Of a DNA stretch of 27,589 nucleotides, positions 21,940 to 27,589 are shown piece by piece. Numbering within the stretch: the first letter of the stretch is position 1; every line of letters starts with the position of its first letter. A program made the position numbers and the translations under genes. Origin of the DNA: Pseudomonadota bacterium. Lineage in GTDB: Bacteria; UBA10199; 2-02-FULL-44-16; JBDRGF01. The DNA lies in contig JBDRGF010000079.1 in assembly GCA_043818055.1 (NCBI GenBank), positions 1 through 27,589 of the forward strand, in the 5' to 3' direction. Below the pieces are notes generated by a model, which saw only the letters and a program-made list of their open reading frames with translations, was not told the origin of the DNA and ran no database searches.

Positions 21940-22410
21940 ATGATTATGGAAAAGGCAGTCATCAAATCACCAATCGGCTCTTTGAAGATTATCATTGAAG
22001 ATGATAAATTATGTTCAATTGATTTTCTAGACAATGCTGAAACTAGCTTGCCGGAAAAACAATCGCTCACATTGAAAAAGACGATCAAACAGCTGGGCGA
22101 ATATTTTGCAAAAGAGCGCCGTGAGTTTGATCTGCCAATTTCTTTTGAAAAGGCCACTCCCACAAAATTTGAACTCAAGGCATGGAATGTGCTGCTCAAA
22201 ATTCCATATGGAGAAACAATATCTTATAAGGCTCAAAGCAGGAAGATAAAGACCCTTGCATATCGCTCAGTCGGCAAAGCCAACGGCAAAAACCCATTGC
22301 CGATTGTAGTTCCCTGCCATCGAGTCATCATGTTTGACGGCAAACTGGGAGGCTTCTCCAGCGGCATCTGGCGTAAAGAATTTCTATTGAAGTTGGAAGG
22401 GACAATCTGA
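21940..22410 (+). CDS. ogt: Methylated-DNA--protein-cysteine methyltransferase
   Basis: SPIG, IPYGETISY, NPLPIVVPCHRV active site, KEFLLKLEG. Confidence 0.95.
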   Translation: MIMEKAVIKSPIGSLKIIIEDDKLCSIDFLDNAETSLPEKQSLTLKKTIKQLGEYFAKERREFDLPISFEKATPTKFELKAWNVLLKIPYGETISYKAQSRKIKTLAYRSVGKANGKNPLPIVVPCHRVIMFDGKLGGFSSGIWRKEFLLKLEGTI

Positions 22411-22441
22411 GCGCAAATGCTGGAGTTAGTCCTATATTGGC

Positions 22442-23245
22442 TTATGGTATAAATTGAAAATCTTCTATGATTATTTCGGTTTCAAGCCCATCTGATGGTG
22501 GAAGCTCATTGAGTAACCATAAAATTATACCAACCTTTTCTTCTCCCTTTGGAGGGACATCAGTTCCAAAGTATTTCCATTGTGCAATTAGATCGTTTGT
22601 GTTCGATGAATTTGGGTCATTGCCCTGTTTACTTTCGAAAATAACTGAGCTGGCTCTCCATTCGATTGTGTGAATAGATTCCTCACTGTTCGAAGGAAGA
22701 ATCACAGGGAAGCGCTTGATGTGGCCTTGAATAGTAGATGGTTGTACGACATATTGGCCGATGTCATTATTCTCGATTCCCCATTTTGAAAATTCAATGT
22801 CAATTTCACGATTATTATAATCCGGGTTGTCATCCCAAGTGAAGAGTCCAAATACAATATTTTTATCAAGTTGATCGATAGAAGCGCTGATTTTAAAGAT
22901 ATAAGTTCCGTATCCGAAACTTGTAAAAGAGCTTAAATGTGCACAATACCATTCGCCATCCTTCTGTGTAATCTTTATGTGGAGTTTTCCTAAGTCGTCC
23001 ATCCAGACGTTGTTGCTTCCGTTAGAATAATAATTTGGCCCTGGAGTTGTTTTTTTATCTATAGAAGAGTGGATTTTCCATGTTTCGCCTGCAAATGTAA
23101 TTTGATCCTGTCTGACCTCTGTTCTTTCTTGTGTTTGAGATTCCTGATCTGATGAAAATCCTGAAGGTTTTTCCTGTATGTTTACGCTATTGCAACTGAT
23201 AATCGAGGTTAAAAAAATAATTATAATAACAAGATTTTTTACCAT
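22442..23245 (-). CDS. Glycoside hydrolase family 16-like lipoprotein
   Basis: Signal with IISC, FGYGTY, and the catalytic EIDIE motif (REIDIEFSKW). Confidence 0.8.
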   Translation of the reverse strand: MVKNLVIIIIFLTSIISCNSVNIQEKPSGFSSDQESQTQERTEVRQDQITFAGETWKIHSSIDKKTTPGPNYYSNGSNNVWMDDLGKLHIKITQKDGEWYCAHLSSFTSFGYGTYIFKISASIDQLDKNIVFGLFTWDDNPDYNNREIDIEFSKWGIENNDIGQYVVQPSTIQGHIKRFPVILPSNSEESIHTIEWRASSVIFESKQGNDPNSSNTNDLIAQWKYFGTDVPPKGEEKVGIILWLLNELPPSDGLETEIIIEDFQFIP

Positions 23246-23353
23246 GGTCAGTATTATGTCTCGAAATTCCAATTTGTCGAGCCTATTGTAGTGCCATAAT
23301 TTACAGAGCATATTGACTTTATTATCCATATAGAGGTAGATACGGCAGGTCAA

Positions 23354-23420
23354 GTCTAACGGTAGGATGGTTGGTTTTGCCTGTCTAGGTTTTTACCCTG
23401 CCGCATGGCAGGGCGAATCC
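23354..23420 (+). pseudogene. Degenerate tRNA-Gln-like copy interrupted in the T-loop
   Basis: Shares CTAACGGTAGG, TGCCTGTCTAGGTT and CGAATCC with the intact tRNA. It has a 22-nt insert at 23392-23413, a broken anticodon arm and no acceptor stem. Confidence 0.7.
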
Positions 23421-23536
23421 AGGTTTATTTGGTGATTGTTCTTTACAGTTTAACGTATAACCCGCCTTCGCCTTTCAGGCTATGGCGCGGTCTAAGGATC
23501 TGTAAACTTCGCTTCGCTCAGTAACAGATTCTAAGA

Positions 23537-23607
23537 TCGGGGATCGGCTAACGGTAGGCCTGCAGACTCTGACTCTGCCTGTCTAGGTTCGAATCCTAGT
23601 CCCCGAG
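23537..23607 (+). tRNA. tRNA-Gln(CUG)
   Basis: Acceptor stem TCGGGGA/TCCCCGA, anticodon arm GCAGA-CTCTGAC-TCTGC, T arm CTAGG-TTCGAAT-CCTAG, discriminator G; CCA not encoded. Confidence 0.95.
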
Positions 23608-25059
23608 CACTGGTGGACAAGAGGCCCATTTCACGAAGTTGTGGAATGGGTTTCTTATTTGATATTCAATAGTTGAGCCGTTGAGCGTGCAGTTCGATAG
23701 AACTAGTTTTAAAAGTTTACGCTTCTCATCATTGGTTGCCCGCAAGTAGAGTCTATGTGCATTCTTAGCGAGTTCGAGAAGTAGTTTGCCATTTTCATAG
23801 TAGGGGATATCGGCCTTGCTATATGCTATTAACTTGTTTTCATAAGTAGCCAGCTCATCCTGCCATCTGTTTGTGTTCTTACGCCAGAAGTTCTCGCTTA
23901 TTTTGCCGTCAAGCTTGTCAGTATAGGATTGATCTATCCTTGACCTTAGCATGTCAATTTTAGAGCGAAGAGAGATGATCTCAGAGTCTCTGAAGCGATT
24001 CTTGTCATTGTAACTTTCCTTGAGGGACTTAACGACTTTATCAATCACAGGTTGAGAGATCTGTATGCTTTTAAAGATATCTTCAAACTGATCAGTTAAC
24101 TTCTCTTCGCGAACATAGCTCTTTTTCAATGAACATTCTTTTTTGGCTTTGCTACAGTGATAATAAACGTATCTCTCTTTTTTAATCTCAGAGACTACAG
24201 AACAACCACAATCGGCACAGGTGAGTAGTCCAGCATAAGCAAAGTCACCCTTGCGCTTGTATTCGCCTTTATTTCGCTTATTGAAAGCCTTTTGAACTCG
24301 ATCCCAAAGCTCTTTAGTGACAATTGGCTCATGAACTCCATGATACTGCTTTCCGCTATATACAAAGTCTCCATAATAAACAGGATTCTTTAGAATTTTA
24401 TCAAGATTAGCTTTTGAAAGAGGTTTTCCATGTTTTGAAGTAAGATAGTTATCTATAGCCCACTGGTGAATCATAACCAGCGAATATTCGCCAGTTGCAT
24501 ATAACTCATAGATTTTCTTAATTAGAGGGGCTCTTTCAGGATCTATAAGCATTATATGTTTTTCTTTGTCATTCAGATAGCCAGTGGGAGCTTGTCCAGG
24601 GTATTCACCATTAGCAGCTTTCTCATACAAGCCTTTCTTGACCTCTTCTGATAAGTTGTCGATATAGTTCTTAGCCATCAGGACTTTGATGCCATGAATA
24701 AACTTCTGATGTGATTTAGAATCCTTGGATAGAATCTCACTTTCTTTTACAAGATGAATTTCAATATCTGAAACATCATCAAGTATAACGTAGTCTTTAA
24801 AATTGCGATATAATCTGTCAGTTTTTTCAACGAGAAGGGCCTGTGTGGATTTGCACTGTTTTAAATAATCAACCATAAGCCCAAATTGCTCACGGCCTGT
24901 TGACTTTGCTGTTTCAGCATCAGCGAATGTTTTAACAACTTGAATTTGATTTTTTAAGGCATATTCTTCAAGGAGCTTGCGTTGAGCGGGGATTGAGAAT
25001 CCTTCTTTCTCTTGCTCTTTGCTGGACACTCTACAGTAGATAACCCCTTTTTTTAACAT
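23596..25059 (-). CDS. Large serine recombinase (integrase)
   Basis: Catalytic YCRVSS, EKTDRLYRN, recombinase domain (APTGY, ILKNPVYYG, HEPIV), Zn ribbon CADC...YYHC..C, coiled coil. Confidence 0.95.
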   Translation of the reverse strand: MLKKGVIYCRVSSKEQEKEGFSIPAQRKLLEEYALKNQIQVVKTFADAETAKSTGREQFGLMVDYLKQCKSTQALLVEKTDRLYRNFKDYVILDDVSDIEIHLVKESEILSKDSKSHQKFIHGIKVLMAKNYIDNLSEEVKKGLYEKAANGEYPGQAPTGYLNDKEKHIMLIDPERAPLIKKIYELYATGEYSLVMIHQWAIDNYLTSKHGKPLSKANLDKILKNPVYYGDFVYSGKQYHGVHEPIVTKELWDRVQKAFNKRNKGEYKRKGDFAYAGLLTCADCGCSVVSEIKKERYVYYHCSKAKKECSLKKSYVREEKLTDQFEDIFKSIQISQPVIDKVVKSLKESYNDKNRFRDSEIISLRSKIDMLRSRIDQSYTDKLDGKISENFWRKNTNRWQDELATYENKLIAYSKADIPYYENGKLLLELAKNAHRLYLRATNDEKRKLLKLVLSNCTLNGSTIEYQIRNPFHNFVKWASCPPVLGD

Positions 25060-25196
25060 ACATTTTCCCTCTCATTGATCTGATTGAGTAGCTCAAAAAG
25101 CTCGCCTAAAGCAGTAATATCCTCATTTGATAAATCAGGCAACAATTCCTTTTCTCTATCCTCATCATGGTGCTTATGTGTTTTTGAGGGGTTCAT
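25053..25196 (-). CDS. Small acidic protein (47 aa), below the ORF-track cutoff
   Basis: MNPSKTHKHHDEDREKELLPDLSNEDITALGELFELLNQINERENVC*. It starts 1 nt after the primase stop and overlaps the recombinase ATG. Confidence 0.6.
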   Translation of the reverse strand: MNPSKTHKHHDEDREKELLPDLSNEDITALGELFELLNQINERENVC

Positions 25197-25197
25197 T

Positions 25198-27387
25198 TTA
25201 ATTGCAATAAACCTCTCTGAAAGCCTGTTTCTCAGCCTCTTCTCTAGTTAAGCCGCTATCAAACTCCAAAATTGCAGCTCTTTCTTCGAAATCTTCTAAT
25301 TGCGAAGAAGATAAACGATCCTTGTTGATTTCGCTGCACACTTGCACACTTTCTTCTAACATATCGACTGTAGGAAGAATTTCCTGTGTACAAGGTAGCT
25401 CATCACCTAAAGCAATACGCAATGGTTTACGTTTTCTATCCTCATTATTTTTAAGATATCCTTTTGAGAGACATTGGCTTACGCGTCTAGCTACGGCGGA
25501 TCTATCTAACTTTAGATAATCAGTAAGCTGTTTGATACTTACTTCTTCAGATTCTAAATTATTGCATAACTCTTTTACAGCTTCTATGGTCTCCAACACA
25601 GTTTTTGAGACGGATGCTTCAATTCCTTCACTCATGATATTTTTTACAAGCTCACGAACCTTTTGATAGTCCTCAAGAGTGGCAATTATTTTTCCATCCT
25701 TATCTTTTCGTCGGCTGGCTTGGTGTAAAATTGCATGAGTTTTTATGAGTGAGAGAAGTTGTTTAAAGTCTCTTCTGAGTCTGATTGATATGGGAGGTAT
25801 GAGTGATGCAAGCTTTTTAGCAAACGGTATTGTGACTCTTGATTCTGCGAGATTCAGCCATTCTTGAAAGTTATGCCAAATACCATAATCAAGTTCATTA
25901 CGGTTTGATTCTTCGGCTAGAGATAGGAATATATCCTTTGTTTGATTATTATCATCAGATACATGTAAGCTGAATAATCGTGTTTCATTCTCAGGGTGAA
26001 TTTTAATTGCTGTTGTGGTGATTATGCATCCTGTTGGGCCCTCTTTTTCTATTAGTCTGGATTTGCAACCATCTTTTGTGCTGTCTACTGTTTCGTAACG
26101 AATTTTTCCTTCGCTAAGCAATGACCGAAGTAAGTATTGAGCTATATCACCGCCCATTCCAGCGGCTTCATACAAAACTAAAAAACGATGTTTTAGAGAT
26201 TCTTCTGAATATGCTAGAGCATGTTCACTCATTGCGCTAATATCGTGATATGCTGATTTAGGAAAAAATTTTAGAACTTGTTCAACGAGATAACTTTTTC
26301 CTCCCGATGAAGGGCCTTTTACAACTATAGATACAGGTCGATCCAAAGATCTGCTGATCAAGCATAAAAAGAGAATCTGGGCATTTTTTGTATCACCGAC
26401 AAACCCGTTTCTTTTTAAATCCTCTACAAAACACTGAAGAATATCTTTTTGTTGGGCGATATCCTTGCAAAGATTCCAATTGTTAAGAATACCCAATTGT
26501 TTTTTTTCTGATGAGTATTTTAAAAAAGTGGTGCCTTGGTTTAGATAGCTATTAAAACGTTTCTGAAAAGAATTTGGATTATCAAGGTAAAGTGAACTTG
26601 GATCTTTATATGATTCAAGATCAACAAGTATCACTCGTTCGTTGATTTTTGAGTTTTCAAGCCATTTAAGAATTGATTGTCCGCCCTGATCTGGTTCTAT
26701 GATAACGTATATCTTTTCAATTTTATCGAGATGAGAACTCCAGCCCACTTTCCAGGTATTTGCTCCTGGTATGCCTATAGCTGGGAATTTATTATACCAT
26801 AAGGTGTGACAGTCTGACTCTCCTTCACATAGGATTATGCGCCCAATTTGCATCGCTTCAGCAATTTTGTTTAATCCATAGAGGTGTACTTTATTGTCTG
26901 TTTTCCATCTAAAGCGGTCATTTCCGCTGAGATCAAGGCGGTATCTAATGGATAGAACAGAGCCATTTTTATCAAAATAAGGGATTCTTATTTTCGGTTT
27001 TCCGTTCTGCTTAAGATCGGACAGTCCATAGCTTTTCAAAATGTCGATAGGGATGTTTTTGTGTGCAGAATATTCTTCTAGTGAACATCCCTTTGCACTG
27101 GATTTATTGTTGTTTTTGAAGCTGTTATTGTAATCATGTGCATGTGTGTATCCATTTTTTGATGATCCACTAGGTATGTTAATTCCTAACCTTTTAGCTA
27201 GATCAATCCATCCACCACCAGCATTGCATGTATCACAATACCATGTTTTTTTATTGGGATTCCATCTTGCAGAAGGGTTATGGTCATCATGTGCTGGACA
27301 TAAAAATCGTATTTCATTTCCGCACTTCTTGCCTTGACGTTCAGATATACAGCTCTCTATCTTGTTGATAAAAATGGACTCAGTCAT
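25198..27387 (-). CDS. Primase-ATPase fusion (CHC2 Zn finger + TOPRIM + P-loop ATPase + HTH)
   Basis: CPAHDDHNPS..CDTC, ILCEGESD, GIPGA, EPDQGG, Walker A GPSSGGKS, VLYEA, ENETR, HTH LKLDRSAVARRV, and tail FEERAAILEFD. Confidence 0.85.
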   Translation of the reverse strand: MTESIFINKIESCISERQGKKCGNEIRFLCPAHDDHNPSARWNPNKKTWYCDTCNAGGGWIDLAKRLGINIPSGSSKNGYTHAHDYNNSFKNNNKSSAKGCSLEEYSAHKNIPIDILKSYGLSDLKQNGKPKIRIPYFDKNGSVLSIRYRLDLSGNDRFRWKTDNKVHLYGLNKIAEAMQIGRIILCEGESDCHTLWYNKFPAIGIPGANTWKVGWSSHLDKIEKIYVIIEPDQGGQSILKWLENSKINERVILVDLESYKDPSSLYLDNPNSFQKRFNSYLNQGTTFLKYSSEKKQLGILNNWNLCKDIAQQKDILQCFVEDLKRNGFVGDTKNAQILFLCLISRSLDRPVSIVVKGPSSGGKSYLVEQVLKFFPKSAYHDISAMSEHALAYSEESLKHRFLVLYEAAGMGGDIAQYLLRSLLSEGKIRYETVDSTKDGCKSRLIEKEGPTGCIITTTAIKIHPENETRLFSLHVSDDNNQTKDIFLSLAEESNRNELDYGIWHNFQEWLNLAESRVTIPFAKKLASLIPPISIRLRRDFKQLLSLIKTHAILHQASRRKDKDGKIIATLEDYQKVRELVKNIMSEGIEASVSKTVLETIEAVKELCNNLESEEVSIKQLTDYLKLDRSAVARRVSQCLSKGYLKNNEDRKRKPLRIALGDELPCTQEILPTVDMLEESVQVCSEINKDRLSSSQLEDFEERAAILEFDSGLTREEAEKQAFREVYCN

Positions 27388-27589
27388 TTTCCGCCCCTGA
27401 GTCTTCTGTGAAAAGCTCATCAACGCTCACACCTAGATATTTGCAGAGCTCTTTTTTTTGCTTTTCGGTTGGAGTAATCCATCCATTGACTATTCTGGAG
27501 ATTGTCGCTCTGTCGATGCCAAGGACTTTACTTAGTGCACATGCTGGTACTCCCTTTTTTAGAAGTGCTATTTGAAAAGTTTGTTTATT
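27380..27589 (-). CDS. XRE/Cro-type HTH regulator (5' end outside the window)
   Basis: Manual translation: NKQTFQIALLKKGVPACALSKVLGIDRATISRIVNGWITPTEKQKKELCKYLGVSVDELF...*. Its stop overlaps the primase start (ATGACTGA). Confidence 0.85.
   Translation of the reverse strand, partial: NKQTFQIALLKKGVPACALSKVLGIDRATISRIVNGWITPTEKQKKELCKYLGVSVDELFTEDSGAEND

Follow-up and report, generated by a model that had tools for sequence, protein, structure and literature searches.

According to our reading of the window (the whole stretch of DNA that was analysed, i.e. the entire contig C79 of 27,589 nucleotides), to which we assign a probability of about 0.6, its last part represents the junction, on the tRNA side, between host DNA and a mobile element; the integrase gene of this element likely spans its own attachment site attP, and excision would swap in a tail that likely is a degradation tag. 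The two final residues of the integrase and its stop codon would thereby give way to a tail of roughly 15–35 residues.

The integrase gene ends in the antisense of a host tRNA gene

The junction consists of the following features:

23537–23608, plus strand: host tRNA-Gln(CTG), intact, called by ARAGORN, with G73 at 23607 and without an encoded CCA
23596–25059, minus strand: large serine recombinase (LSR) in its integrated form, 487 residues, C-terminus ...PPVLGD*
23596–23598, minus strand: stop codon of the integrase (CTA on the plus strand), antisense of tRNA positions 62–64, left on the host side by the predicted crossover
23605–23606: predicted crossover dinucleotide, tRNA positions 71/72, in the codon of Leu485; deduced from relatives
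23607–27589: mobile element, which leaves the contig at its end; GC content 37.7% compared to 44.9% on the host side

An initial annotation of this DNA had noted that the 3' end of the LSR gene overlaps a host tRNA-Gln(CTG) in antisense, and this observation was confirmed. The tRNA is the only one with a CTG anticodon for Gln that was called in the assembly. Both ARAGORN and the translation of the reading frame agree with the further details given there, namely the terminal PPVLGD*, the position of the stop, an overlap of 12 nt and the transcription of the gene toward the tRNA. The overlap amounts to 12 nt up to G73 and to 13 nt up to the end assigned by ARAGORN. Reading of the sequence places A72 at 23606, and the stop is read from C62-U63-A64, which belong to the 3' strand of the T-stem. 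The claim that the last codons and the stop are supplied by the antisense of tRNA-Gln also holds, with the host share becoming smaller: Because the crossover is predicted at 23605–23606, the host contributes only Gly486, Asp487, and the stop. Given this prediction, the element itself encodes PPV and the larger part of the Leu485 codon.

The protein is a member of the large serine recombinases. Its Resolvase, Recombinase, and Zn-ribbon domains each exceed the Pfam cut-off; the catalytic domain PF00239 scores 78.9 bits (cut-off 23.3), and PF07508 and PF13408 are likewise above their thresholds. The catalytic residues R10, S12, D81, R82, and R85 are invariant across 100 homologues, and the zinc ligands C281, C284, C302, and C309 are conserved. 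The top Foldseek matches are serine integrase complexes (E 6e-21).

The overlap with tRNA and tmRNA genes is a family trait

For a survey of the family, 186 loci were examined, which originate from genomes (80), metagenomes (80), viral contigs (24), and from the genome of the window (2). Sixteen loci with an unmatched C-terminal part and 21 that end at a contig edge were excluded, which left 149 evaluable ones. In 92 of these, including the window itself, the gene reads into a tRNA or tmRNA gene on the opposite strand; one locus has such a gene nearby without overlap, and for 56 none was called, many of which end in tRNA-like peptides or in another conserved tail. The targets comprise 12 kinds: Asn (39), Gln (23), Asp (9), His (6), Glu (4), Ala (3), tmRNA (3), and Val, Cys, Ser, Pro, and Leu with one case each. 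Relative to the T-loop, the phase of the reading frame is identical in 87 of the 92 loci. The overlap with tRNA or tmRNA genes is thus a trait of the family. Altogether, 6504 of 8000 scored candidate proteins pass an E-value of 0.001, the trait having been checked for the 186 loci alone.

These data bear on the most trivial explanation, according to which the overlap is due to chance or to misassembly and the gene contains no att site. The missing far end of the element in this assembly would fit it. A misassembly is ruled out because the junction is bridged by a 216-nt contig of the independent sequencing run X3 (study P3), which corresponds to 23554–23769 with one letter different; X3 stems from another study than X1, the run that carries the window DNA best. 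Chance is ruled out by the frequency of the overlap (92/149) and its common phase (87/92). Together with nine relatives for which both ends are at hand (see below), this refutes the explanation at the level of the family and leaves it next to no probability for the window.

A FastTree tree of 94 proteins, which carry 14 different target labels, requires at least 32 changes of the target, compared to a mean of 49.7 and a minimum of 41 for shuffled labels. In the clade of the window (support 1.0), two members are at tRNA-Gln and one is at tRNA-Asn, and a tailed form is included as well. Among phages and plasmids no close relative was found, the best full-length matches reaching 29% and 33%.

Several loci deviate from the common pattern or lie at its margin. 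Three viral contigs (L183, L184, L187) form a subgroup that reads into tRNA-Leu or tmRNA with a phase shifted by one base, and the related viral contigs L176, L180, L185, and L186 end in other tails, e.g. KKCA or YAAA. In two genomes of the host order, more distant recombinases or fragments thereof face tRNA-Gln(CTG) and tRNA-Asn (L012:1704–2492, L009:1378–1596). In the genome of the window (G000), a tRNA with a 233-nt intron (C31:27786–28094, minus strand) escaped the default scan. With introns allowed, ARAGORN assigns it to Thr, but its 3' half resembles tRNA-Asn, which is otherwise absent from the list of tRNAs.

Gene content of the element and its surroundings

Beyond the integrase, the visible 4 kb of the element contain the following features:

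25053–25196, minus strand: unannotated reading frame of 47 residues, overlapping the start codon of the integrase; candidate directionality factor or regulator
25198–27423, minus strand: primase-like protein of 741 residues with a CHC2 zinc finger and matches to the PHROG families primase and primase/helicase
23619–23656, plus strand: terminator-like hairpin plus T-run for the tRNA, antisense inside the last codons of the integrase; z-score −3.7

The primase-like gene is likely the replication gene of the element. The 47-residue frame was matched in three other loci (L016, L018, L102; phmmer E 1e-5 to 1e-6) among 110 upstream reading frames and had no Atlas match at ≥0.9; in the alignment, its closest relatives keep the pattern of an amphipathic C-terminal helix. 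Distant relatives have small genes at its place that, labelled by eye, are presumably helix-turn-helix-like. Profiles of Pfam, NCBIfam, and PHROG detected no known directionality-factor family among the genes in the visible 4 kb. At the position of the hairpin, 47 of the 92 overlapping loci fold with z < −2, compared to 4 of 92 in a control stretch located 200 nt further in.

On the host side, a divergent reading frame of 303 residues (22442–23353, minus strand) lies next to the tRNA and is without match in Pfam, NCBIfam or PHROG. A stretch of 14 nt (23378–23391) is an exact copy of positions 23576–23589 of tRNA-Gln about 200 bp upstream; its genome-wide E-value of 3.5 means that it may be due to chance. 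Immediately before the tRNA, a 15-nt repeat (23507–23521) occurs that is also found on 10 other contigs and represents a second host repeat family.

Relatives with both ends

For the 91 other loci with an overlap, 510,694 nt of upstream DNA were searched for far arms, and for 21 loci up to 20 kb more. A far arm was found in eight cases (L017, L018, L040, L042, L065, L083, L091, L162), and the ninth two-ended case is a second family member in the genome of the window (contig C58). The far arms of L017 and L065 were conspicuous on the DNA match alone, among the matches listed; most others were picked by the peptide motif D-x-F/Y-R-T/N plus a required core match. For this reason the motif counts are inflated, and the same is true for the finding that the predicted crossover falls inside the shared core of all nine relatives. 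The motif scan for tails yielded eight matches on the integrase strand and none on the opposite strand.

The shared cores have a length of 6–13 bp, and in all nine relatives the stop of the integrated form lies outside the core; therefore, excision would add a tail. A core that includes the stop, the outcome that would have spoken against differing C-termini, did not occur in these relatives. The proposal that attP lies at or within the 3' end of the recombinase gene and that integrated and excised forms differ in their C-termini is thus borne out by nine of nine two-ended relatives, from which it is transferred to the window.

The closest of them are L017 and L018, with tails of 25–26 residues. 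The best model for the window is L017, which is 62% identical, also resides at tRNA-Gln(CTG), and also ends in LGD*. Its core of 13 bp ends one base short of the TAG. In its far arm, the reading frame stays open for a further 26 residues, the last of which are IAA*. These ends agree with a break in GC content, which is 45.4% inside and 59.3% and 63.0% outside. L018 (60% identical, tRNA-Asn) has a tail that is homologous to that of L017 and ends in LAA*.

Three further loci are of interest on their own. The element on contig C58 (10846–26771; G000, L200 and L201) is complete with 15.9 kb and its integrase is 34% identical to that of the window; the cargo consists of a type I restriction-modification system, two ThsB-type TIR genes, and a YhcG nuclease. 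Its insertion site is not a tRNA gene but a REP hairpin of the GTAG type, and the flank of this copy mimics a T-loop. The tail encoded by the far arm has about 33 residues and QAA as its end. In L083 (3600–6100), five orphan integrase tails are stacked at a spacing of 400–900 bp upstream of an integrase at tRNA-Asn, which resembles a cassette array. The closest relative from genomes (L016:1275–2774, 70%) exists as tailed form on a 4.6-kb contig that lacks a tRNA, and faces a gene for 631 residues.

Predicted crossover point and probable recognition of the T-arm

Two further features of the window refer to the arms of the att site:

23587–23593, plus strand: T-loop motif GTTCGAA (T-loop read from the sequence at 23588–23594), 13–19 bp from the predicted crossover; predicted binding motif of the zinc-ribbon domain (ZD) in the attB arm
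23607–23630: element-side att arm; TGGAC at 23614–23618, 9–13 bp from the centre, mirrors the GGAY of the other arms

The att sites of the relatives are imperfect inverted repeats about one centre, as in serine integrases. Symmetry peaks between tRNA positions 72 and 71, with values of 82/216 in the nine rebuilt attP sites and 85/216 in the nine natural junctions. For each of the two sets, none of 1000 shuffles reached the peak at any centre, and swapping of arms gave a mean of 68 compared to the observed 82. Arm positions 9–13 are complementary in 9–17 of 18 junctions. Read outward, the arms contain GGAY at 10–13 bp, which in the tRNA arm corresponds to positions 62–59. The T-loop motif is located at 13–19 bp in the tRNA arm, and at 18–24 bp in the far attP arm of the relatives. 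At a shift of 5, far attP arm and tRNA arm give 41 of 63 matches, compared to 5–21 at other shifts. The integrase-side arm, which is also protein-coding and part of the terminator hairpin, gives 9/63 at shift 5, which means that it is without the shifted T-loop motif. In the model for the LI/A118 integrase, as far as given in the relevant part of the paper, the ZD motif occupies positions 16–24 in attP and 11–19 in attB (Rutherford et al. 2013, PMC3783163).

From these patterns it seems probable that the integrase recognises the invariant T-arm of tRNAs. Such a recognition would explain the many targets and also the use of different tRNAs by close relatives. The element on C58 may be regarded as a natural test, which supports the T-loop rule: Its rebuilt target is a copy of a host REP hairpin, of which a pattern search found 59 intact copies, and only three sites of the genome contain the core plus a T-loop-like motif in register, namely the flank at C58, the end of tRNA-Gln, and the end of a tRNA-Asn.

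The tail of the free form

The tails vary widely across the family, both in length (15–37 residues) and in sequence. Eleven of 23 tails end in Ala-Ala. None of the 92 integrated ends does so, and among 1642 long reading frames of this genome the number is 6. The ending had not been used as a search criterion; the 23 tails are not independent (five stem from L083 and two from L053), 12 of them lack Ala-Ala, and two natural junction tails without Ala-Ala (L048, L070) are outside this count. Among 269 homologous proteins, Ala-Ala ends occur in 0 of 186 with a C-terminus of the tRNA type and in 8 of the 83 others. The tmRNA tag of the host ends in LAA, and ClpXP reads ends such as Ala-Ala. That the tail acts as a degradation tag is given somewhat less than even odds, judged by sequence features; we nevertheless rank it above the three other functions discussed below.

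Beyond the att arm, nine tail pairs that are not independent of each other were compared over 153 codons. The differences fall on 34 first, 31 second, and 52 third codon positions; 26 codons carry a silent change, and in 50 the residue is altered, a preponderance that counts against the proposed reading. Base differences amount to 117/459 inside the tails and to 163/270 just past the stop (ungapped). These numbers argue modestly for a coding constraint on the tails beyond the att motifs. A search with the tail region as protein query returned merely four proteins.

The AlphaFold model of the tailed relative P0003 (70% identical; 141 sequences) has a mean pLDDT of 92. Long helices at 335–382 and 388–414 form the embedded coiled coil, the last ordered helix (471–479) ends about five residues before the crossover, and residues 481–499 have pLDDT values of 46–54, which is weak evidence for disorder of the tail because the alignment mixes tail types. 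A single-sequence fold of P0011 was uninformative, with a pLDDT of 39. Since the ordered fold ends before the crossover, the integrated form keeps all predicted domains.

The same model bears on the suggestion of the initial annotation that the two C-termini may act as a directionality switch. Spelled out, the tailed form would integrate, the tail-less form would excise, and no separate directionality factor would be involved. The swap is indeed strictly tied to the integration state, and the profile searches of the visible 4 kb are compatible with a missing factor. On the other hand, the tRNA arm and the far attP arm exhibit the 5-bp offset by which characterised serine integrases determine direction, the coiled coil of the P0003 model is intact in both forms, and small genes lie just upstream in many members, the 47-residue frame being the candidate factor here. 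With the predicted fold ending some five residues before the crossover, a switch of this kind is not supported and we consider it very improbable.

A tail that is needed for full activity would have a different effect: As in Mx8, integration would leave a weakened integrase and thereby stabilise the element. The modified integrase of Mx8 is reported to be less active, and a lock-in of this type has been proposed for the rumA ICE (in passages of PMC4701971) and for DsiB (in passages of PMC3146451). The conservation of tails beyond the att arm in close relatives and the natural full-length forms that stacked elements yield (L053, L025) would agree with it. Against it stand the order of the P0003 model, which extends only to helix 471–479 and is subject to the mixed-tail caveat, and the wide differences of tail length (15–37) and sequence across the family. 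We regard this function as unlikely.

A similarly low chance is given to the possibility that the tail is a neutral by-product. Here, attP would overlap the end of the gene for compactness, the peptide would be nothing else than att DNA motifs in translation, and both forms would behave alike. Because the codons for D and F-R-T coincide with the GGAY and T-loop DNA motifs, the conserved D-x-F/Y-R-T/N is no proof of a protein function; moreover, integrated tails of one to more than 40 residues are tolerated, and the fold of the P0003 model is complete before the crossover. Neutrality does not, however, account for the excess of Ala-Ala (11/23 tails compared to 6/1642 background frames), nor for the third-position bias and the better conservation of the tail compared to the DNA past the stop, which are seen more than 25 bp from the crossover.

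Search for the far end of the window element

It had been suggested to locate the distal att site. This was achieved for the nine two-ended relatives; for the window element itself, the far end was not detected in the assembly by means of 12-mers, blastn, a core and peptide scan of 3077 sites, a weight matrix, or short tblastn. The weight matrix recovered the held-out far arm of C58 with 32.9 bits, the next site scoring 17.8. Since the far end is not assembled, the tail of the window element is deduced from its relatives.

Two candidates were rejected: C60:19963 (13-nt match) continues as an ordinary open coding frame, and C127:4867 (7-nt core plus motif) lies antisense in a host gene for 420 residues that is devoid of an element context. 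Loose ends behind 23608 that were seen in runs X1 and X4 do not occur in the assembly; the one in X4 probably is the tRNA of another organism, with four differences in 47 letters. Four sequencing runs listed no joints, and neither a circle nor an empty site was found for the window element. Run X2 covers the element side and not 22109–23529 of the host, a gap in filtered contigs that proves nothing. The viral contigs contained no exact copy of the element arm. Likewise, the tRNA-Gln loci of relatives gave no empty site and belong to other families; 11 of 12 are without such an integrase within ≤1.5 kb per side.

Proposed mechanism

The model comprises five steps. The first is what the loci display: the gene, its overlap with the tRNA, the drop in GC content, and a phase that is common to 87 of the 92 homologues, which read into 12 kinds of tRNA or tmRNA. 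The second is the crossover at tRNA positions 71/72 with the stop outside the core, which is seen in the relatives and predicted for the window. Taken together, these two steps are very probably correct. In a third step, the integrase would read the T-arm, GGAY at 10–13 bp being contacted by the recombinase domain and the T-loop at 13–19 bp by the zinc-ribbon domain; the T-loop motif at 18–24 bp of the far attP arm, i.e. the 5-bp shift, would represent the ordinary distinction between attP and attB. Fourth, the element would restore the 3' end of the tRNA and supply a terminator from the last codons of the integrase. In the fifth and weakest step, the tail, which often ends in Ala-Ala like the tmRNA tag of the host, would shorten the life of the integrase encoded by the circle. 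The integrated form would be folded, tag-free, and stable, with the direction still set by the att geometry and a directionality factor. The strictest version, namely that the clade both reads the universal T-loop as attB motif and cuts a ClpXP-type degron off its own C-terminus on integration, must be considered doubtful.

If the T-loop reading is true, switches between tRNA species need few changes, and it provides a testable rule for the moves of one enzyme family between tRNA targets. The tail swap may constitute a second layer of control, by protein stability, beside the known att geometry; with removal of a degron, a stability switch controlled by integration would be built into the integrase gene. 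Both together would make these enzymes a toolkit provided by nature, with which DNA could be inserted in one step at the native tRNA genes of many bacteria and which could be tuned by means of the tail, and the clade concerned would be a very large, uncharacterised one. Because the repeat left behind has just 6–13 bp, standard island finders would likely miss such elements. Furthermore, the C-termini of homologous proteins in databases are mostly of the tRNA antisense type (186/269, by rough patterns); therefore, proteins synthesised for engineering may represent the integrated and not the integrating form.

Comparison with known systems

The layout as such is already known, whereas no published description was found for the targeting of many tRNAs, the T-loop rule, or the tag-like tail. 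In the full-text literature, with most subscription papers and supplements outside its scope, neither a tRNA-targeting clade of serine integrases nor a T-loop reading nor such a tail was found. The word 'tRNA' is absent from the main text of Durrant et al. (PMC10083194), and the pertinent parts of PMC12884075 and PMC9513070 contain nothing further. The Islander paper, in the section concerned, describes serine integrases as not known to target tRNA genes and confines its search to tyrosine integrases.

Closest by description is DsiB from the ssrA islands of Dehalococcoides, a serine integrase whose 3' end always overlaps attL and whose stop lies beyond the island; its authors suggested that full function may be confined to the circular form and to copies located behind another island (McMurdie et al. 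2011, passages of PMC3146451). Like the window LSR, it is a serine integrase with a 3' end overlapping att, a likeness that was judged from the description. Differences are the restriction to tmRNA as target, the length of about 540 residues, and a second small recombinase, DsiA; the passages on DsiB contain neither a crossover model nor a degradation tag (PMC3146451). In the visible 4 kb, the neighbours of the window integrase are the 47-residue frame and the primase, and the target is tRNA-Gln; tmRNA serves as target in 3 of 92 relatives. With 112 bits, the LSR is far below the cut-off of 900 of the CcrB profile NF047343, and CcrA, CcrC, and XisF are also far below theirs. By the tests made, the window LSR is not an equivalog of CcrB or DsiB.

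In the serine integrases of streptococcal rumA ICEs, the att site likewise lies inside the integrase gene; these are conjugative elements with one protein-coding target, in contrast to the many tRNAs used here (passages of PMC4701971). The initial annotation had named Mx8 and SSV1 as examples of att sites inside integrase genes. Besides these tyrosine cases, serine integrases with this layout have been published (PMC3146451, PMC4701971, each in part). Mx8 and SSV-type elements have attP inside the integrase gene, alter the protein on integration, and are listed as exceptions among tRNA-targeted islands in that the gene extends across attP; Mx8 exchanges 112 residues for 13, and SSV integrases are split from their catalytic part (passages of PMC4701971, PMC4383910, PMC8371274). 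A changed product of a gene that contains attP is common to these systems and to nine of nine two-ended relatives, and is predicted for the window. In contrast to the tyrosine recombinases of Mx8 and SSV, the window protein has serine recombinase domains only and keeps all predicted folds intact.

With the LI/A118 integrase, the LSR shares the domain order, and this enzyme is the best sequence match for the full C-terminal domain among solved structures. The ZD positions of LI/A118 fit the T-loop motif at 18–24 and 13–19 bp, if one allows for a numbering in the paper that may be offset by one base; a difference is that just one attP arm carries the shifted motif here. LI/A118 inserts into comK, and its att site is located outside of the int gene.

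A precedent for control by a tag is the integration-dependent immunity of mycobacteriophage BPs, whose attP lies in the repressor gene (passages of PMC4557955). There, the gene that crosses att is the repressor, whereas here it is the integrase itself and the tag is putative. The removal of an ssrA-like tag by integration, which controls stability in BPs, may have a counterpart here, Ala-Ala ends being enriched among the free-form tails (11 of 23).
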